Of a stretch of DNA of 64,000 nt, positions 1,323-49,029 are shown one piece after another. The notes under the pieces are model-generated. The model ran no database searches. It was given only the letters and a program-made list of their open reading frames with translations, and was not told the origin of the DNA. A program made the translations under genes and the position numbers. The DNA is from Octopus vulgaris (lineage: Eukaryota). The DNA is taken from assembly GCA_951406725.2 (NCBI GenBank), contig OX597822.1:4836001-4900000 (forward strand), written 5' to 3'. How positions within the stretch are numbered: the stretch's first letter is position 1; each line of letters opens with the position of its first letter.

Positions 1323-1930
1323 TATACTCAATATTTTGCTGTACTGATTCAGAAATTGGTACTGAGCCTTCATTAAATTCATCAGTCTTGTTTATGCTTG
1401 ATTTTTCCCAAATATTTTGGGGCTAGATGGATCTTCTCAAGCACAGGTTCTCTCTAGTCTAGCATGGCATTTCAGACTTTTGTATATCCAGGCATACATT
1501 ATCCAATGTGCCCATTCTCCCTCCCCCCTAAATATGGTATAATATGATTTGGATTCTCTTCTATAATACAAAGCTTAACCCACTGAATGGCTTTGAGGTC
1601 AGGTGGTTTCACAGGAGATACTACACTCAATAGTTCAAGTTCTTATTACAGACGTTGTATTGGAACCTTATTCAAGGTACATACCTTTGCTTGGCTGTGT
1701 ACCTACTTGATAAATTCCATTCTTATTCGAGTAGTCAATGGCAAAGACATTCAATTCTAAAATCAATTGCTCTAACAACACAACGAAACAACAAAAACCA
1801 TAATACTCACATTAGCATCGACAAAATTGATGTGAAATACCCCGAAAGATGGGGATGGAAGCTTTCATTACTGAATGTCAATATGACCTGAGGTAAGGGC
1901 TGTAGACTCAATACAATTATCTAACCATAG

Positions 1931-1961
<31 letters not shown>

Positions 1962-2634
1962 TGCGCACACACACACACACACACGCACACACAGACACAC
2001 ACGCACACACAGACACACACGCACACACAGCTACAACAGAAAGAAAGTGAAAAAGAAAGCAATGCTTCTTACAATTTCTTCTATCAACTGACTACCATCT
2101 TACATATTCTTTATAGCTCCAAAGCTAGAATATAACCCGATCTAAGGCAGAAAGTATTATAGACAAATAATTGAGAACCGATCATAAGTGGATGATGGCA
2201 GATAAATGGAACCATCCAACTAAGTTTTTCTCCCCCAAATTACCTTATTCCAAGCAATATTTTGGTTTCCTTTACGATTTTTTTTTTCCCCACTTTTTCT
2301 TAGCATTTCTCATTATAAATCCCTAATGTGCTGTCAGACAGCTTAGAACATTACCTTTATGATTGCTCTTTCTATAGTAATGCCTTAATATCTGTGTGCA
2401 ACTTGAGATTATCCTTTAACACCTTTACAACATTATTTTTAGTTCTCTTCCCTTTGCCCCACCAACTGTACAACACACAAGAAAATTATGCAGCACTACC
2501 TTTTATAGTGAACTCATCAAAGTAAAATGTGATATTGCAATTGTAATAGGCATTGCATGTATATCATCAATAGTGAAATAAAATATCTGTTAATCTACCT
2601 ATCAAAATATTTAGCTATTCAGTTTTATACCAAA

Positions 2635-3035
2635 CTAGCAGTATCGCCCGGCGTTGCTCGGGTTTGTAAGGGAAATAACTATATAAGCATTTTTAGAGAG
2701 TTATAGCCAAAAGATAGAAAAAAAATGCATTAAAAATGGGAAAAAAATTATGGTAAATTTTTTTTTAAATAGTTGACCCATCGTAGACATTTTAGAGAGT
2801 TACGTCCCTTATATAATAGCGAAAGAAATGCATTAAAATGGAAAAAAATGATGGTAAATATTTTTTTAAATCGTAGACTCATCGTAGACGTGCGCTAATA
2901 CCCAGAAGGGCCCGATATGAAACACGACTATAAGATACCCGGTTTTGGTTAAACTGCACCGCAAAATGTGGGAGTAGTTAGGAATCTAAATCGTAGGAGA
3001 CAGACAGCACACAACCTCACTTTTATATATAAAGA
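2635..3035 (-). mobile_element. Non-autonomous Helitron (~400 bp)
   Basis: On the minus strand it starts TC(TTTATATATAAAAG) and ends CCCGAGCAACGCCGGG (hairpin) + CGATACTG + CTAG. It sits between A and T with no TSD, the canonical Helitron termini. Confidence 0.8.
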
Positions 3036-3683
3036 TTACTGAGGATTAATATCTGCTTAAGAAGAAATGGAAAGAAAATTACAAAGAACAAGCGAAAATA
3101 TTTTCAAATCTGGTTGGTGTTAGGCTTAATCAGTAGAGCATCAGAAAAAATATCTTGTAATACCTAGTTATGTCCCTTAACATTCTGTATTGAAATCTAC
3201 CTCAAGTCAGCCATTCTAAGGTTGATTGAATATGTACCAATCTAAGTACTGACTATATCCTTAAAAATGGTTCTTCTACATGACCACGGTCGAAAGACTG
3301 AAAACCAGTGAAAGAACAGTAAGAGAACAGGATATATACTAAGGAAAGTTTATGATTAGAATTGAAAGACACGTTTTCTTCCATGAGTCTTAGTGCAAAG
3401 TCTTAGCTTGCCAACATGTATCCTTACCAACATGGTGATGGTTTGGAGTGATGTTGGAAACTTACTCTGCATATAATTTTCAAGAAAATGTTCCATGTGA
3501 CTTGACAGTGAAACTAAAGCGATCCATCTAAACTAGACCTGGCCACTGCAGCAAAATCCTGTTTCAATAATGGTAGGCAGAATACAGTATACTACAGGTT
3601 AGCTTCCACAAAAAAACAAATGGCTGCTGACTAGCAGAAAGGTAGTTGCTGATAAAAATTAAAAAGTAGAAACCACAACTTAC

Positions 3684-3830
3684 CAATTTGGATAAGAAAG
3701 CTGTACGTTGTACTTCTTCAAATGAACGGCATTCATTCCAGGGACTTCAAACTTCCAGATTGATCGAACATATAGGATTAGTCTATTTGTGCCACCAACC
3801 CCAGATAGAAAGATCTTGCTGGTAATATCC
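3684..3830 (-). CDS. Candidate internal coding exon of an unidentified host gene (147 nt, phase 2-2)
   Basis: Acceptor ttttctcttcag|G and donor TTG|gtaagt. Length is a multiple of 3 and only one frame is open (DITSKIFLSGVGGTNRLILYVRSIWKFEVPGMNAVHLKKYNVQLSYPN). Non-repetitive; no homology recognised. Confidence 0.4.
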
Positions 3831-4077
3831 CTGAAGAGAAAAATAAACATACAAATATAAATGAATGTATACAAATGCATGCGTGTGTTTAATGTGTAGA
3901 TATAAGAGATATTTTTTGTCACAGTTTCATACAAGTTGAAAATATAGAATTGGTTAAGATTCCGTGTGTGTGTGTGCATGTGCACATGTATGCTGTTGGC
4001 AATTAGTTGGAACGGTGTATATGCTGAGTTCGAAAGAAAGTCAAGACTGAAATTCAAGGCTCAGTCATTTATCACTG

Positions 4078-4783: not shown

Positions 4784-6354
4784 ATCATCATCATCATCAT
4801 CATCATTGTTTAATGTCTGTTTTCCATGCTGGCATGGATTGGACAGTTTGACTGAGGTCTGGAGAGCCAGTGGCTGCACCAGGCTTCAATCTGATCTGGC
4901 AAAGTTTCTACAGCTGGATGCTCTTCCTAATGACAACCACTCTGAGAGTGTAGAGAGCACTTTTTACATACCACCAGCACAGGAGCCAGTCAGGCAGGCC
5001 TGGTAACTATCACGTTCGGATGGTGCTTTTTACGTGCCACTGGCACAGGAGCCAGTCTAGGGGGTACTGGCATCGGCCACATTTGGTTGGTGCTTTTTAT
5101 GCGCCACAGGTATGGGAGCCAATCAGAAACACTGGCCCTGGCTATGATATTGGTTTTACTTGACTCAACAGGTCTTCTCAAGCATGTCATATCGCTCAAT
5201 GCATCAGGGGTATTCTTAGCAGGGCTGGACATGCGTGGCTGCGATCTTACTTTAGTTGCTGTCTTCTCAATCACAGCATATCTCCAAAGGTCCTGGTCTC
5301 TTGTCATTGCTTCTGTCAGGCCCAATATTCAAAGGTCATGCTTCTCCACCTCATCCCATGTCTTCCTGGGTCTACCTCTTCCACAGGTTCCTTCTACAGT
5401 TAGGGAGTGGTACTTTCTCACACAGCTGTCTGTCTTCATTCATATGTAACACATGACCATACCAGTGCAGTCACCTCTCTTGCACACCACATTTGATGCT
5501 TCCTATGCCCAACTTTTCTCTCAGGGCACTTTACACTCTGCTGTGTATGCACACTGACATTACACATTCAGCGGATCATACTAGCTTCATTTCTTTCAAG
5601 CCTACGCATGTCCTCAGCAGTCATGGCTCATGTTTCACTGCCATGTAGCATGGCAGTTCACACATGCGTCATACAGTCTACCTTTCATCATGAGTGAGAG
5701 GCTCTTAGTTTCCAGCAGAGGTGGGAGCTCCCTGAACTTTGCCCAGGCTATTCTTACTCTAGTCAATACACTCTCAGAGTAACTGCCCCCACTACAGACT
5801 TGGTCGCCTAGGTAGCAGAAGGTATTAACTACTTCTAGTTTCTCCCATTGTCATGAGATGGAATCTGTTTTCTGTACATCTTCAGTGTTTATTGCTCCAG
5901 TGCATCTGCCACACACAAAAACTATTTTCCCAGTTAACCTTCCTTTGATATTGCTGCACCTTTTATGTGTCCATAGGTTACATCAGGTATATCGTATGAA
6001 CTTGCTGTCCATGCCTTTTCTACATCTGCCTGAAGAGGGTTGTGATTTGACGGCCTTCCTACTTACTAAGGCTTTGGATTTTGCTAGTTTAAACCTAAGG
6101 CCCTTCAATTCTAGGCCTTGCTTCCACACCCTAAACTTCGTCCCCAGTTCTGGCAGTGACTCGGCTATTAGAGCAAGATCATCAGCATAGAGAAGCTCCC
6201 AGGAGCCGCCTGTCTTGAATTCCTCTGTTATTGCCAGGAGGGCTATAATGAATAAGAGAAGGCTGAGGACTGATCTTTGATGAACCCCTACTTCTACTTG
6301 GAATTCTTCACTATAATTGTTGCTAACCCTCACCTTACTGACAGCATCCCTGTA
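4784..6354 (-). mobile_element. 5'-truncated RTE-clade LINE (decayed RT C-terminal half, 3' UTR, (ATG)n tail)
   Basis: ORF 5983-6408 contains GVHQRSVLSLLLF and ELLYADDLALIAES (RT motifs). ORF 4990-5325 has the RTE-like C-terminus DQDLWRYAV. (CAT)n tail at 4784-4807. Confidence 0.85.
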
Positions 6355-6675
6355 ATGAAATCCGATTTCAGCTGAATGGGAGGGAAAGTAAGAAGTTGTG
6401 ATATTCATGATTTCATAAAGTAAATTGGTTACAAATGAGAATTAGTAATTGCATCACACAGTTGGTTTTATCACACAGTTGGTTTGCAGTAGACTTACTG
6501 CAACATGAAAGCATCCAGCATGAATATGTTAATAATGATATTACCATCAGCCTGGGCTATGGTAGAAGATGCTTGCCTAAGGTGCCACACAGTGGGACTG
6601 AGCCCCAAAACCTAAAATCATGTGGTTGGGAAGCAAGCGCCTTAACCACATAGCAATACTTTCATACACATGCAT

Positions 6676-12234: not shown

Positions 12235-13868
12235 CACTGGCCAAAAGAAGTTTAAGACCAATGATGACAGTTCTATTCCTTCATTAATATTTTTTTAACA
12301 AACCTGTATAAAATTATTTTACTTTTTACAGTTTATGTAAATATTTTTCCTTTTTTGAATAATGATATAGGCATTATATATCTTTCTACAATTCGAATAA
12401 TTTTAATGCGCAATTAATTCAAATGATTAGAAATTGTTGGCAAAATAAGCTTAAGACCATACGTAGATTATGCAAATTAATAAACCAAATGGGTGGTCAT
12501 ATTGTTGGTCGTACTGCACTGTTTTGTTTAATAATCGAGTATTTTTACACATTAATTCGCCGTGGGAAAGCATCGTAGCATCAACTGAGTTACGAGATCT
12601 GAGATGATGTTGCTTCGGCAGCAAAATGTGTCCTTCATGAACAATTAGGAAGCAATTAGGATGCAGCAAAACATGCTTGTGTTCAAGCATGGAACCTTTA
12701 CCAAGCCACTGGCCAATACAAAAATCGGCAAAGAACGGGCGCTCCAAGAAAAAAAAAAACAGTACAGATGGATCAGCAAATTCATAGGCTCTCTGAAGAT
12801 AATCGAATGCTAACAACAGTGGACATTTGCAAGCAATTATCTGATGAAACTGACATCAGCTTTACATCACAAACTGCCTGAAAGAATTTGGGCTGCGTGG
12901 TCGGATTGCCCGAAAGAAGCTGACCATTTCTGAGATGAACTGGCAGAAGTGGATCAAGTTTGTTAAAAGCCATATTGAATGGATGGCTGAAGACTGGTCA
13001 AAAGTTCTTTGGAGCGACAAATCCCACTTCTGCATCTTTGGATCAGATGGAAAGACTTATGTTAGATGCCATCCAGCTGAAGAATTCCATCCTAAGTATG
13101 CCAAGAAAACGGTGCAAGCAGGACATGTGTGTGTGTGTGTGTGTGTGAGTACTGGTGTGGGCCGCATTCAGCAGCTCAGGTGTTGGTCCAATTGTTAAAG
13201 TTGATGGCAGACTGAACAGTGTAGGCTATCTGCAATTAGTAATTGAAAATGAGCTGGCATATTTAAATAATCTATTTTCCAGCATGACAATTGCCCCATT
13301 CATAAGGCTGGGAAAGATTTTCCATGTTTTGAGCACAATAATATGGTGGTTATTAAGTGGCCTCTAAAGAGCCCAGATTTGAATCAAATAGAAAATATGT
13401 GAAATTATGTTTCTAAAAGAATTCATGCTAAAAGACTCAGTAAATTTGTCTCAATTACTTAATTTTATTGAAGAAATATGGCAGAACATTCCAAGTGATT
13501 TTTGTGCTCATTTGTTGAATTCCATGTCCTGTTGTTGTAAGGCCATAATTCAAAATAATGGCTATGGAACTAGATACTAATAATAAATTTTTATTCGTTG
13601 ATCATTTGTACCATAAATTTTCAATCTAAGCAAAATAATGTTGGTACTTTCTAAAACTTATTTTGCCAACAATTTTTAATCATTTGAATTAATTGCGCAT
13701 TAAAATTATTCAAATTATAGAAAGATATATAATACCTATATCATTCGAAAGAGAAAAAAATTCTACATAAACTGTAAAAAGTAAAATAATTTTATACAGT
13801 ATTGTTAAAAATAAACTAATGAAGGAATAGAAATGTCATCATTGGTCTTAAACTTCTTTTGACCAGTG
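12235..13868 (+). mobile_element. Full-length decayed Tc1-family transposon with ~215 bp TIRs, nested in a SINE
   Basis: TA-CACTGGCCAAAAGAAG...CTTCTTTTGACCAGTG-TA; TIRs ~12235-12449 and ~13657-13868. Transposase motifs WSKVLWSDKSHF, FQHDNCPIH and WPLKSPDLNQIEN, with stops and frameshifts. Confidence 0.92.
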
Positions 13869-34472: not shown

Positions 34473-34479
34473 TATATAT

Positions 34480-34718
34480 CATCATCATCATCATTTAGCG
34501 TCCGTTTTCCATGCTAGCATGGGTTGGACGGTTCTACTGGGGTCTGTGAAGCCGGAAGGCTTCATCAGGCCCAGTCAGATTTGGCAGTGTTTCTACGGCT
34601 GGATGCCCTTCCTAACGCCAACCACTCCGCAAGTGTAGTGGGTGTTTTTTACGTGCCACCTGCACAGGTGCCAGACAGAGGTGGCACAACGGCCACGAAC
34701 GGATGGTGCTTTTACGTG

Positions 34719-34721
<3 letters not shown>
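34480..34721 (-). mobile_element. RTE-derived 3' end fragment with (ATG)n tail
   Basis: Same sequence family as 4784-5100, 45700-45885 and 48218-48385. Confidence 0.75.
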
Positions 34722-34788
<67 letters not shown>

Positions 34789-34842
34789 GTATATATATAT
34801 ATGTATAGATAAGAAAGTTTGTTTGGTAAAGCACGTGGGTGA

Positions 34843-37465
34843 ATATATAAGAAAATAGTAAAGTGTGAAAAAACGACAGAAGGCTTAAATGTTAAAAGAT
34901 ATATATATTTGTGTCAAAATGTCTGGAGAATATTGGAAAAATTTTTTTCCCTTTCCTTAAAATGACATAATTTTTAAATTTTTAAAGAAATTACCGGTTT
35001 CGCGTGTAGCTTTTCAAATTTCTTGTGACGTTATGTTTATATTGCATGGATTTATCGTTGTTTTTATTTCCAGGAGATTTCTAAATAAGGGGAGGTAGTG
35101 AGTGATTTTTTTCCGGTGTAGGGGAGATAATCGCTTAAAAAATTTTTTTCCCATTTCCTTGTTAATTTCTCTGTGTCATCAGTATGTTCGGATGGTTGAG
35201 TCTGGGTTTGTACTTTTCAATGAAGAATGTTTCCTTGTTCAGTCTCATTTGTGTTGATGATCCGAAAGCACATTGGTAAAATGGGAAGATTAAAAATTGT
35301 GGCAGTAGTTGCTTTGCGCATTTCTCAATGTGCTCACTAAAAGGTATCATTCTATATTCTGGGAATGCAATCTGTTGTCGATGCAGTGTGCATCTGCGCC
35401 TGAGTGATAGTCCCGTGGAACCCACGTAGTCTTGGTGGCAGCCCGAGCATTTAATAACATAAATTATGTTTTCAGAGGCACAAGTAAAGTTAGATTTGAT
35501 CTTAAATTTCTGTCCTTCTTTAAAGAAGAATTCTGATCCTTCCAATAGGTTAGGACATGTTGCACAGTTCGATCTACCACATTTTTTTACTTTTGCATCC
35601 GTAATTTTAGAAGACAATTTTGCCTTTGTGAGAATCTTTTAAGTGATTTAGGCTGTTTGTAGCTTTTAATGATTTGGTGTATGTTTAGAATTTCCCTTAA
35701 TTTTGGGTTTTTATGAAGTATTGGTAAATTCTGGGTGATGATGGTGAAGGCTTCTTTGTTTCTGGGGTTGTATGTAGATATGTAAGGTAGTATTTTCGGG
35801 GAAGGTGTGTTGTTGTGTTGAACTTTTCTTAAAGTTTCTATGTTGATTTCTGTTGCACGTCTGATCCCATCCTCTATGAGTTGAGCTGGGTAATGTCTGT
35901 CAATTAGGGTGTTTTTGAGTTCTTGCAGTCTAAAGTTCCTGGTATTTTGTTCTGACACTATTGTGCATATCCTTCTTGCAAGGTTGAAGGGTATGTTTGT
36001 TTTAGTGTGTCTTGGGTGGCATGAATTAAAAAGAAGGTATTGTTTGGCGTCTGTGGCTTTGTAAAAAATGTCTGTTTCTATTTTAAGGTTAATTTTTTTA
36101 ATTAGTATATCCAAGAACGGGAGCTCCTTTTGGTTGTATTCCATTGTGAACTGTATATTTGGGTTTATGCTGTTCAATAGGTTTTTAAATTTTAGGAGTT
36201 TATCTATGTTTTCATTCCAGAGAATGAAACAATCGTCTAGGAATCGTTTCCAATTCTCTTTTATGTATTGAGAGAGGAGTTTCCAAAGATTGATAGAGAT
36301 TCCTGGTAAATGATTATTTCCATGTATCCCATTGTTAAGTTCGCAATGACTGGTGCTGCCCTTGTACCCATAGCAATTCCGGATTTTTGACGGTAAAATG
36401 TATTGTCAAACATGAAGTGGTTATTGTGTAGGATGAATTCAATTGATTTAGTAATGAATTCCTTACTGATCCTTTTTGGTATTTCTTCCGGAAATTGGTC
36501 TAACCAGAATTGTATTGCCTCCAGTCCATAATTATGAGGTATACTGGTATACAAGTTGACTACATCAAATGAAACCAGGATTGTTTCTTCCTTGGTTTTT
36601 TTTGGAAGGTGGTTTAACATATCTAAGTCATCTCTGATATGGCTATCGATATGTTTAAGGAAGGGTTTCAAGAGGATGTCCATAAGTAGACTTAGTCTGT
36701 GTGTTTCACAGGTTGGGCCAGCTACAATGGGTCGTAGTTTTAGGTCCCCCGGATTAGGTGTGTGTATGTATGTCTTTGGTGATTTTTTAATGGTTTCATT
36801 TATAATTTGACTTTTATGAATTTTTGGCAGACCATAGAAAAGGCTAGGTTTGCATTTAAAGTTTGTTAGGAAATCAATCTCTTTGGTTGTCAGTTCCTTT
36901 TCATGGGTTTTAATTAGTGAAGATAGAGTTTTCATTATTTTTTGTGGGGTGTAGTTGGTAATTTTTTCATAATGTAGGTCTTCATCAAGCAAGGAAATTA
37001 CAAGATTTCTGTAGTATGATGTATCCATTATTACAACTGCATTTCCCTTGTCCGCTTCCTTAATGGTTATATCTTCATCATTTTGGAGTTCTATCAGTTC
37101 TTTCCATTGTGTATTGTTAAAATTTGGGTTAGCTTTCTGTTTATGTATAGTATGGTAGGGGAAGTTCTCAATGTGGTTACAGAATTCGTCAAGATCTTTA
37201 TTTCTTCCTCTGTGTGGGATGTGTTCACTTTTGTTCTTGACAAGTGATTCATCTTCAGTATTGAAACTGTTTGATGCTTCTGCTAGTCTTAATTTTCTGC
37301 AAAATTCTGTTATATTATCCTTGAGTTCATTTAGGTTTGCTCTGCGTGGAGTTGGTGTAAATTTGAGCCCTTTTGCGAGGATGTCAATTTTTATGTTAGA
37401 AAGAGGTTTGGTTGAAAGATTGATTATCTTCGGTTTTTCCTTATTACTAGGTTCCAGCCTGGGTT
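34843..37465 (-). mobile_element. Penelope-like retroelement (Neptune type), left and longer copy: N-terminal domain, RT, thumb, Cys linker, GIY-YIG
   Basis: Motifs IINLS..LAKGLKFTPTP, FYGLPKIHK, LRPIVA, LVSFDVVNLYTSIPH, QKSGIAMGT, RFLDD, CGRSNCATC, IIYVIKCSGCHQDYVGST. ORF ~37465 to 35162 with two 1-nt frameshifts. Confidence 0.95.
34985..35024 (-). ncRNA. Minimal type I hammerhead ribozyme (U3-A8 variant), left PLE copy
   Basis: Exact reverse complement of 39572-39611. Confidence 0.8.
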
Positions 37466-39753
37466 CTAACCCAAATTTTAACAATACACAATGGAAAGAA
37501 CTGATAGAACTCCAAAATGATGAAGATATAACCATTAAGGAAGCGGACAAGGGAAATGCAGTTGTAATAATGGATACATCATACTACAGAAATCTTGTAA
37601 TTTCCTTGCTTGATGAAGACCTACATTATGAAAAAATTACCAACTACACCCCACAAAAAATAATGAAAACTCTATCTTCACTAATTAAAACCCATGAAAA
37701 GGAACTGACAACCAAAGAGATTGATTTCCTAACAAACTTTAAATGCAAACCTAGCCTTTTCTATGGTCTGCCAAAAATTCATAAAAGTCAAATTATAAAT
37801 GAAACCATTAAAAAATCACCAAAGACATACATACACACACCTAATCCGGGGGACCTAAAACTACGACCCATTGTAGCTGGCCCAACCTGTGAAACACACA
37901 GACTAAGTCTACTTATGGACATCCTCTTGAAACCCTTCCTTAAACATATCGATAGCCATATCAGAGATGACTTAGATATGTTAAACCACCTTCCAAAAAA
38001 AACCAAGGAAGAAACAATCCTGGTTTCATTTGATGTAGTCAACTTGTATACCAGTATACCTCATAATTATGGACTGGAGGCAATACAATTCTGGTTAGAC
38101 CAATTTCCGGAAGAAATACCAAAAGGATCAGTAAGGAATTCATTACTAAATCAATTGAATTCATCCTACACAATAACCACTTCATGTTTGACAATACATT
38201 TTACCGTCAAAAATCCGGAATTGCTATGGGTACAAGGGCAGCACCAGTCATTGCGAACTTAACAATGGGATACATGGAAATAATCATTTACCAGGAATCT
38301 CTATCAATCTTTGGAAACTCCCTCTCTCAATACATAAAAGAGAATTGGAAACGATTCCTAGACGATTGTTTCATTCTCTGGAATGAAAACATAGATAAAC
38401 TCCTAAAATTTAAAAACCTATTGAACAGCATAAACCCAAATATACAGTTCACAATGGAATACAACCAAAAGGAGCTCCCGTTCTTGGATATACTAATTAA
38501 AAAAATTAACCTTAAAATAGAAACAGACATTTTTTACAAAGCCACAGACGCCAAACAATACCTTCTTTTAATTCATGCCACCCAAGACACACTAAAACAA
38601 ACATACCCTTCAACCTTGCAAGAAGGATATGCACAATAGTGTCAGAACAAAATACCAGGAACTTTAGACTGCAAGAACTCAAAAACACCCTAATTGACAG
38701 ACATTACCCAGCTCAACTCATAGAGGATGGGATCAGACGTGCAACAGAAATCAACATAGAAACTTTAAGAAAAGTTCAACACAACAACACACCTTCCCCG
38801 AAAATACTACCTTACATATCTACATACAACCCCAGAAACAAAGAAGCCTTCACCATCATCACCCAGAATTTACCAATACTTCATAAAAACCCAAAATTAA
38901 GGGAAATTCTAAACATACACCAAATCATTAAAAGCTACAAACAGCCTAAATCACTTAAAAAGATTCTCACAAAGGCAAAATTGTCTTCTAAAATTACGGA
39001 TGCAAAAGTAAAAAATGTGGTAGATCGAACTGTGCAACATGTCCTAACCTATTGGAAGGATCAGAATTCTTCTTTAAAGAAGGACAGAAATTTAAGATCA
39101 AATCTAACTTTACTTGTGCCTCTGAAAACATAATTTATGTTATTAAATGCTCGGGCTGCCACCAAGACTACGTGGGTTCCACGGGACTATCACTCAGGCG
39201 CAGATGCACACTGCATCGACAACAGATTGCATTCCCAGAATATAGAATGATACCTTTTAGTGAGCACATTGAGAAATGCGCAAAGCAACTACTGCCACAA
39301 TTTTTAATCTTCCCATTTTACCAATGTGCTTTCGGATCATCAACACAAATGAGACTGAACAAGGAAACATTCTTCATTGAAAAGTACAAACCCAGACTCA
39401 ACCATCCGAACATACTGATGACACAGAGAAATTAACAAGGAAATGGGAAAAAAATTTTTTAAGCGATTATCTCCCCTACACCGGAAAAAATCACTCACTA
39501 CCTCCCCTTATTTAGAAATCTCCTGGAAATAAAAACAACGATAAATCCATGCAATATAAACATAACGTCACAAGAAATTTGAAAAGCTACACGCGAAACC
39601 GGTAATTTCTTTAAAAATTTAAAAATTATGTCATTTTAAGGAAAGGGAAAAAAATTTTTCCAATATTCTCCAGACATTTTGACACAAATATATATATCTT
39701 TTAACATTTAAGCCTTCTGTCGTTTTTTCACACTTTACTATTTTCTTATATAT
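37466..39753 (+). mobile_element. Penelope-like retroelement (Neptune type), right copy; inverted duplicate of 34843-37132
   Basis: ORF pieces 37171-38262, 38184-38639, 38639-39133 and 39052-39435 reproduce the left-copy protein, with three 1-nt frameshifts. Ends in (TA)n. Confidence 0.95.
39572..39611 (+). ncRNA. Minimal type I hammerhead ribozyme (U3-A8 variant), right PLE copy
   Basis: AAGAAAT-TTGAAAA-GC(TACAC)GC-GAAA-CCGG-TA-ATTTCTT: perfect 7 bp stem I, 2 bp stem II, palindromic stem III (ACCGGT). Predicted cleavage after 39604. Confidence 0.8.
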
Positions 39754-39770
39754 ATGTATATATATATATG

Positions 39771-39849
<79 letters not shown>

Positions 39850-47770: not shown

Positions 47771-49029
47771 ATTCCTGTACGTCAGCCGTATACAAAATCT
47801 GCCTTCTCTACAGACCATCTGACCATTGTTCTTATCATCTTTCCATTCATATTTACTTCTGATTGCTTCCGTTCCTGCCCACTGTCCACTACATTCATCT
47901 TTACACATATGATTACCATTACCCCATGCTTATACCCATATCCCACTCTGCCTCCTTACTTGTCCCTGCTGGTTCTTTTGAACCTTGACTCCCTTCTTCT
48001 TATCTTCTGGACATATTACCATGAGAATATAATCCAGCACTTCATCCCCACCACATATTTTTTGCACCAATCCAATCACTCCCACCCACATATCTAAAAT
48101 ATGTAGTAGCATTGATTTATTTATCATCTGACCTTTTAATAAAAAACACATCATTATCAAGCTGTGTCAACAACAGAACTAGCATTTATTGTCAAAGAGT
48201 GCAAACATTGTAGTATTTCATCATCATCATCATCATCATCGTTTAGCGTCCGTTTTCCATGCTAGCATGGGTTGGACGGTTCAACTGGGGTCTGGGAAGC
48301 CTGAAGGCTGCACCAGGCCCAGTCTGATCTGGCAGTGTTTCTACAGCTGGATGCCCTTCCTAACGCCAACCACTCCGTGAGTGTAGTTATTATTGTTATT
48401 ATTATTATTATTATTATTATTCATTTTGTTCAACGTGTAGAAGTACGTATGTGTTCAATATTGTTTTATTCAATTTTAGAAAAACTGAAACATGTCATGG
48501 ACAATTCTAGAACATATTGAATTTTGTGCATGACTTTTGGCTCATCCTATATGTATGTATATGTATGTATGTATGTGCGTGTGTATATATATATATATGT
48601 ATATGTATGTATTTTGGCCTGCTGACTTAGTCAGTAGGGTGGCCTCATTAGAAAGCTAAAACGATGCAAAGTGCATTGTGACTAGCGATGTATAACAGCA
48701 TTCAACAGTCTGCTCAATCACATGATCATGTGATATATATGTGTGTATGGGACACTGCCTTTGTGTGTGTGTGTGGTGGGAGGAAGAAGGAGCATACGGT
48801 TTAGGTGTATATATGCAAGTTTGTCTGGGGAACAAGAATGAAAACATGTTTGCATGATTAAGTACGCACGTGCGTGCATGCGTGTGTGCATGTATTTGTG
48901 GGTGTGTTAGTCCATATTGATTGCCATATTTGCGTATAATAAAACAGTATATTTTATTATAAAACAATGTACATCTGTTGACCATAACTAAATGAATGCC
49001 ATCACTCAATAGATGAGCTTAAGAAGGAT

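Follow-up and report, generated by a model that had tools for sequence, protein, structure and literature searches.

In the twin priming of LINE-1, a single RNA is primed by two target ends, and microhomology serves to join what they produce; the internal site used by the second primer varies, and the inverted part lacks a repeated 3' end. Inverted insertions are likewise formed by Penelope-like elements (PLEs), for which the head-to-head layout is already in print. According to the available portions of the PLE literature, an element protein cuts and extends both target strands, two start sites of complementary DNA (cDNA) synthesis delimit a tail and a dimer is predicted (PMC11167929), and the origin of the inverted structures and tails is named as an open question (PMC8557442, section 15). 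The present analysis concerns a PLE insertion in Octopus vulgaris, located within a window of 64,000 nucleotides (nt), this being the whole stretch of DNA analysed (contig OX597822.1, positions 4,836,001 to 4,900,000 of the forward strand, assembly GCA_951406725.2). At the window locus, an abundant PLE has inserted recently, head-to-head and with 5' truncation, and a head-to-head arrangement with a tail on one arm is the normal layout of the family. With a probability of roughly 0.6, both ends of a cut in a (TA)n run serve as primers for reverse transcription from two sites on what is probably the same RNA, separated by 43 nt, and the resulting cDNAs are end-joined.

One tail per head-to-head pair

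A search with 635 nt of one arm against the 2.8-Gb genome returned 1182 candidates; the 40 of them that were scored are all about 100% identical. The full unit comprises about 3997 nt (majority sequence of 11 full units), and its copies close with a short TA run at either of two 3' ends, a short one (S) at unit position 3954 and a long one (L) at 3996-3997; exact matches across the genome number 316 for S and 326 for L. In total, 171 loci were mapped, comprising 70 obtained via three similarity searches, 100 obtained via exact 3'-end patterns, and the window locus. Every exact S or L end on three chromosomes (C1-C3) was fetched to give a set of 115 loci, which is anchored on one exact end, so that decayed copies are under-represented. 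In L108, L139 and L140, older fragments lying next to the insertion were removed manually.

By coordinates only, the 75 S and 79 L ends on C1-C3 form 39 head-to-head pairs within 12 kb, all of them S+L, and two further neighbouring ends at 10-11 kb are separate insertions. Among the 115 end-anchored loci, 81 are two-armed (78 S+L, no S/S, no L/L and 3 with one unclear end), and the structure that had been singled out in the window is thus the family default and not unusual. Over all 171 loci, 129 are two-armed, distributed as 124 S+L, 1 L/L, 0 S/S and 4 unclear; the same rule is kept in each of five ascertainment groups and in five of five older loci (<95% identity). Independent choice of the start site on each side is excluded, because it predicts about half homotypic pairs and almost none are seen.

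A different origin of the asymmetry would be that both cDNAs start at L and that the endonuclease (EN) trims one arm at the TA run of the S site during resolution. This proposal draws on the S site being a short TA run, the element's own target sequence, and on the 'EN-mediated resolution' found in the available text of Craig et al. 2021 (PMC8557442); the sole L/L locus could then be the untrimmed case. Trimming would nonetheless need to strike exactly one arm in 124 of the 125 classifiable loci, and purified PLE protein is described, in the accessible part of PMC11167929, as starting cDNA directly at both tail boundaries, which together make this route improbable.

Pure TA runs, counted together with the element-derived TA, have a median length of 34 nt next to S ends and of 29 nt next to L ends in the 107 of the 124 loci that could be measured. 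A target-site duplication is not resolvable in (TA)n; the 107 loci yield three direct and three inverted flank matches, all six being of low complexity or lying in already repetitive flanks. Two L ends (L135:6325 and L154:5117) enter (CT)n and not (TA)n, and the flanks of L071 carry the same non-TA sequence on both sides, in direct and inverted copies.

Arms, junctions and the route to the palindrome

Arms of the same locus diverge by 2.6 substitutions/kb, versus 15.9/kb across loci (minimum 11.4 in 200 shuffles), and over all loci compared they differ at 213 sites in 83,214 nt; diagnostic sites agree between the arms in 491 cases and disagree in 51, the latter mostly at homopolymer edges. Both arms of a locus are shown, as judged by sequence comparison, to derive from one source. 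Moreover, 132 of 132 junctions are distinct, which rules out the copying of a pre-existing palindrome; since all junctions differ, the palindromes arise anew with each insertion.

Plain fold-back or self-priming on one template, whether cDNA or antisense RNA (the latter per Arkhipova et al. 2013), has been proposed for palindromic junctions in the available text of PMC3846280, and the sequence-only reading had likewise listed cDNA fold-back as its alternative. Such a route predicts that the tailed arm contains the untailed one, and the opposite is found in 28 of the 51 simple end-anchored loci (those made of two segments only), 24 of them by >10 nt, and in 51 of the 87 simple loci overall. Because folding one cDNA cannot yield a longer S arm, this alternative falls for about half of the loci, and most junctions show no notable palindrome. 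Plain fold-back is consequently contradicted as a general route and, as an account of the family, is very improbable; it still fits the window locus, where S is nested in L and the junction is palindromic, and may hold for a minority of loci to which the window locus would belong.

Of the 87 simple loci, 74 map cleanly, with 24 insertions, 11 blunt joins and 39 joins at microhomology; microhomology of at least 2 nt occurs in 24 of the 50 insertion-free junctions against 16.5% by simulation, and insertions of at least 8 nt contain a local match of at least 6 nt in 21 of 22 cases, a count for which no null was computed. The two 5' ends lie within 25 nt of each other in 11 of 51 loci, whereas 2.4 are expected (0 of 5000 permutations). 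At unit 3755-3790, both ends fall in 7 of 89 loci and a single end in only 4, and the junctions there include blunt joins and loops of <3 nt that a hairpin could not prime; such co-terminating ends are as expected if two enzymes reach the same RNA end. This hotspot, at which the two arms of short insertions end together, spans unit 3762-3785 (about 39560-39585 and 35010-35035 in the window) and coincides with a TAACGTCACAA motif, which also stands upstream of the hammerhead ribozyme motif in the relative L231 and is possibly an RNA start in the pseudo-long terminal repeat (pLTR). Hammerhead cleavage was rejected as the cause of this hotspot, since the predicted cut near 3805 lies downstream of its ends. 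Complex junctions with extra internal element fragments in either orientation are present in L118, L038, L044, L053, L170 and L180, which suggests repeated template jumps during joining.

A more elaborate form of fold-back would have the cut ends dock at S and L while only one reverse transcriptase (RT) runs far; the long cDNA would then fold back at microhomology and be copied to the other docked end, which would supply the tail when needed, so that the shorter arm would be a DNA copy of the longer. The one-tail rule and the fact that either arm may be longer are both explained in this manner, as are locus-private variants present in both arms, for instance the TGA duplication of the window locus and, among four further shared variants tested genome-wide, the two without a third carrier (the other two have one); the excess of near-coincident ends and the palindrome at the window junction fit as well. 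What makes this docking route unlikely is that 11 of the 50 insertion-free junctions are blunt, that L090 and L093 would have loops of <3 nt, and that most loops span hundreds to thousands of bases; the arm-private substitutions are also even (37 in the shorter versus 36 in the longer arm), which is a weak point since later mutation dominates. Private variants shared by the arms were also considered as decisive proof of fold-back and rejected in that role, for they occur where fold-back is impossible (15 in 33,045 nt) as well as where it is possible (11 in 17,196 nt); they may stem from a source missing in the haplotype, from the RNA or from later conversion.

When the survey counts are combined with the in vitro facts for a green anole element, paired priming on one RNA followed by end-joining becomes the simplest model, and the proposal that reverse transcription is primed from the two ends of one (TA)n cut, already advanced from the letters of the window, is the best-supported reading. 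One end of the cut would prime at S and the other at L; each start site closes with UAUAUA, a sequence that could base-pair with the (TA)n primer at the cut, the RT producing the tailed arm would have to displace the other cDNA, and the two cDNA ends would be joined by microhomology-mediated end-joining of the host. A stricter form, in which pairing is obligate and two RTs sit on one RNA, one per tail boundary, each primed via UA pairing by one end of a double-strand cut in (TA)n, with the rear enzyme displacing the front cDNA and the host joining the cDNA ends, is credited here with slightly less than an even chance. If it is true, each one-tailed head-to-head copy would result directly from a single reaction, and failure of one primer would account for the one-armed copies.

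Several observations weigh against priming from both ends as the general explanation. One arm only is present in 34 of the 115 end-anchored loci; L056 (L056:1164-8709), whose left arm is tandem, is the sole two-armed locus with two tails; and a common RNA is indistinguishable from a common source locus or from later arm-to-arm conversion. Docking at S and L combined with fold-back from either arm passes all tests but the blunt or loopless junctions, and the window locus fits fold-back equally well, given its nested S arm, its snap-back-like palindrome and its private duplication. In four public runs, neither a piece spanning the window junction nor an empty site was found, although these are contigs in which repeats are skipped and hence provide no evidence either way. 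Finally, as far as the available text of PMC11167929 extends, the anole element shows in vitro no start-site difference between the strands and begins cDNA at a site lacking homology to the cut DNA, so that obligate pairing and UA pairing are hypothetical at the biochemical level.

A predicted stem at the tandem join L057:5095-5210 assigns an internal loop to the S site and an apical loop to the L site; a hairpin around the two start sites was rejected as a candidate feature, the region folding no better than shuffles (z -0.49).

The window locus and its element

The palindrome with arms of about 2.29 kb that was first noticed is confirmed, inasmuch as alignment of 34843-37132 (minus strand) with 37466-39753 (plus strand) shows 0 substitutions and only 6 single-base indels, each within a run of at least three identical bases. 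The true extent of the insertion is 34804-39753, between flanks that are two different sequences. The sequence-only reading had both 3' ends entering (TA)n directly, had taken the whole 333-nt spacer as extra 5' sequence of the left copy, and had described a CT/AG junction inside a mini-palindrome. (TA)n is indeed found on both sides; the left copy, however, enters it after 39 element-derived nt and not at 34843, whereas the right copy has no tail, and this asymmetry is the informative trait of the locus. Similarly, 329 nt of the spacer are extra left sequence and the remaining four, GGTT, are not; the mini-palindrome TGGGTT-CT-AACCCA (37460-37473) is present, and it is created by these four junction bases, a templated insertion. 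The duplicated TGATGA has two exact matches in the assembly, one in each arm of this locus, against 567 of the normal form. By shared arm length, the locus ranks 8th among 89 simple two-armed loci. The coordinates of all features are compiled in Table 1.

Table 1. Features of the window insertion, with full units elsewhere in the genome for reference
Feature	Position	Strand	Remark
Left copy, 5'-truncated, ending at the long (tailed, L) 3' end	34804..37461	-	unit positions 1338-3993
Tail between the S and L 3' ends, 39 nt, in this arm only	34804..34842	-	
Right copy, 5'-truncated, ending at the short (untailed, S) 3' end	37466..39753	+	unit positions 1667-3954
5' RT-frame sequence unique to the left copy, 329 nt, bulk of the 'spacer'	37133..37461	-	
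Junction insertion GGTT, 4 nt	37462..37465		matches neither arm; inverted copy of 37468-37471
Left (TA)n target run, interrupted	34721..34803		
Right (TA)n target run, interrupted	39754..39849		
3-nt duplication TGATGA, right arm	39416..39421	+	
3-nt duplication (TGATGA), left arm	35176..35181	-	
Predicted minimal type-I hammerhead ribozyme motif, U3-A8 core variant, 3' untranslated region (UTR)	39572..39611	+	
Predicted minimal type-I hammerhead motif, left arm	34985..35024	-	
C-x4-C-x2-C linker and GIY-YIG endonuclease with CCHH pattern, C-terminal in open reading frame (ORF) 2	35162..35638	-	PF01541 E 0.0037, below curated cut-off
Full units with ORF1 and RT-EN, absent from the window copies	L057:5178-6552 and L035:1868-5503		

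Against the majority sequence of 11 full units, the arm indels are five deletions and one insertion, all homopolymeric; in the long young arms of the family, homopolymer runs show 66 single-base deletions and 9 single-base insertions in 190,713 nt, a count that omits four homopolymer-rich zones of the 3' UTR. The left copy retains nearly the whole RT-EN frame, interrupted by two single-base homopolymer deletions, and the coding part of the right copy contains three; these frame breaks are probably consensus errors. ORF1 and the frameshift (slippery) site are absent from both arms, and the window copy is probably dead.

Arms that differ only by homopolymer indels typical of long-read consensus, and a junction seen in none of the four runs (contigs only), are what an assembly artefact from fold-back chimeric long reads would leave behind. 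The contigs from three of the four runs depart from the window at 37461 into a full-length element, and that of the fourth stops there. A folded read, however, cannot create the one-tail asymmetry, by which the outer ends differ here as in 124 loci, and the worry is largely removed for this reason; the flanks differ, the arms of other loci have diverged by the differences counted above, and older loci obey the same rule, so that an artefact is hardly credible.

In the full unit, ORF1 (451 aa) is overlapped by an 811-codon RT-EN frame in the -1 frame, the first ATG of which lies 190 codons in; two overlapping ORFs, unlike the canonical single-ORF arrangement, were present in 11 of the 11 full units examined. 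The intact copy L035 has the 811-aa frame, with RVT_1 at 30.9 bits (cut-off 29.6) and GIY-YIG at an expectation value (E) of 0.068 (below cut-off), and PF01541 is carried by many homologs. The linker joining RT to EN reads CGRSNCATC (fitting CX2-5CxxC), and the translations contain IIYVIKCSGCHQDYVG, later His residues and EADKG, in agreement with the CCHH definition (two cysteines between GIY and YIG) and the DKG motif given in the accessible text of PMC8557442. By its predicted domains, the element, a PLE as first surmised, is young, two-ORF and endonuclease-bearing with a C-terminal EN, the RT and GIY-YIG frames and a Neptune/Nematis-type linker all being present; the linker, the (TA)n preference and the minimal hammerhead match the clade type of Neptune or Nematis.

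An in-phase U UUU UUA heptamer, which resembles the HIV-1 frameshift site, stands in the ORF1/ORF2 overlap of 54 of 54 genomic copies matched. Among 36 of 123 related loci, hand-picked for having upstream sequence, the six closest (36-45% identity) have the same in-phase heptamer in four cases, U UUU UUG in one and a broken site in one, and some in-phase heptamer occurs in 7 of the other 30. Several homologs have a called start that aligns with a CUG lying a few codons past U UUU UUA, and CUG initiation would be a rival route to the start of ORF2. A simple H-type search found no downstream pseudoknot in the element and none above shuffles in nine relatives. ORF1 is homologous in two relatives, four ORF1 homologs terminate near F-L, and ORF1 fragments are present in Octopus vulgaris gene models; the protein matches no Pfam family and nothing in the PDB at E <= 0.001, and its model, built from 6 sequences, is all-helical in the N-terminal part (predicted local distance difference test, pLDDT, 76.8).

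The hammerhead descriptor, of our own design, has one match in the unit and 0 in 2000 shuffled 3' UTRs; no Rfam family, hammerhead included, is reached at gathering score. The U3-A8 variant is described in the accessible part of PMC4209133, and the relatives L231 and L240 have the hammerhead in a C3-G8 version. An exact join of tail to unit start, which marks a tandem structure, occurs in 14 two-armed loci. Internal 3'-region duplications of about 50 nt near unit 3604-3653 and of 37 nt near 3839-3875 are subfamily-specific (L102, L106, L122, L125, L133 and L154) and are found in both arms wherever both cover the region. Further relatives (L305-L353) come from contigs of bacterial genome bins from marine samples and are probably host DNA carried in.

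The double-stranded RNA stem and the cruciform envisaged for the locus are speculation and gained no support. Of the 44 shared private substitutions, 8 are A>G and 9 are T>C, which is no sign of editing, and ADAR marks as proof of a single RNA were rejected for lack of an A>G excess; read-through RNA at the locus has no evidence in the contigs of the public runs, none of the listed runs being recorded as RNA. A Pfam search of 107 frames of at least 75 aa found no host gene in the window, the hits being confined to fragments of a Tc1 transposase and of an RT and to one match of low complexity, a search by which short exons would be missed. As for the cruciform, a 333-nt non-palindromic centre disfavours extrusion. 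In run X2, which is RNA only by guess, a depth-3 contig (L057:5081-5341) across the join of tail and ORF1 carries five A>G changes within 49 nt, four of which are never seen, and one once, among 156-265 genomic copies; it points weakly to A-to-I editing of the family's RNA and was left unused, the join being absent from the window locus.

Elsewhere in the window, a very abundant short repeat at 34478-34720 (also at 4793-4954 and 48226-48387) adjoins the left TA run, and its contig depth is hundreds of times that of the element. Other inverted pairs lie at 7579-7717/8017-8155 (139 nt, 96%, 299 nt apart), 12233-12363/13740-13870 and 54670-54795/55822-55947. A fragment of another RT (5983-6441, minus strand) and a Tc1-type transposase fragment (12854-13195, plus strand) are also present.

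Comparison with described elements

The window locus is one of hundreds and matters little in itself; the family is young and abundant enough to test how the inverted structures and tails of PLEs arise. Its counts exclude independent start-site choice, as well as plain fold-back for about half of the insertions, and they turn the start sites mapped in vitro into a concrete prediction, namely one start per DNA end on one RNA. This prediction can be assayed because the genome has copies with both frames open, and the family-wide one-tail rule makes the mechanism of PLE integration directly testable. In the literature searched, which left most subscription papers outside, no count of the one-tail rule and no explicit paired-priming model was found.

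In the octopus family, unlike in LINE-1 twin priming, the 3' end is included in both arms and the two start sites are fixed, which results in a palindrome. The insertion unit of EN-bearing PLEs, as set out in the available text of PMC8557442 and, for Pen2a_Av, of PMC3846280, consists of partial tandems (pLTR), an inverted 5'-truncated copy and an optional tail of 30-40 nt, and these features are matched here. In the octopus family, the one-tail pattern has been counted and is near absolute, at 124 of the 125 classifiable loci, the greater length may fall to either arm, and the inverted arm may extend over most of the RT-EN frame and not the pLTR alone.

Poseidon_Ac (PAc) of the green anole shares with the octopus element adjacent RT starts that bound a tail, an AT-rich target, the cutting and extension of both strands and a pLTR hammerhead, according to the accessible portions of PMC11167929. 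The same source presents PAc as single-ORF, with a start site non-homologous to the target and no strand difference, whereas in the octopus element both ends lie in TA runs matching the target, the ends are paired one-to-one and there are two ORFs. The likeness to Neptune and Nematis extends to the C-x4-C-x2-C linker, the GIY-YIG domain with CCHH, the DKG motif, the (TA)n preference and the minimal hammerhead. An ORF1 separated by a frameshift with a pseudoknot is listed in the legend of Fig. 1 of PMC8557442, the available text of which does not extend to the clade so marked. In contrast to Neptune and Nematis, the octopus element has a separate ORF1, joined by the U UUU UUA site with no pseudoknot found.

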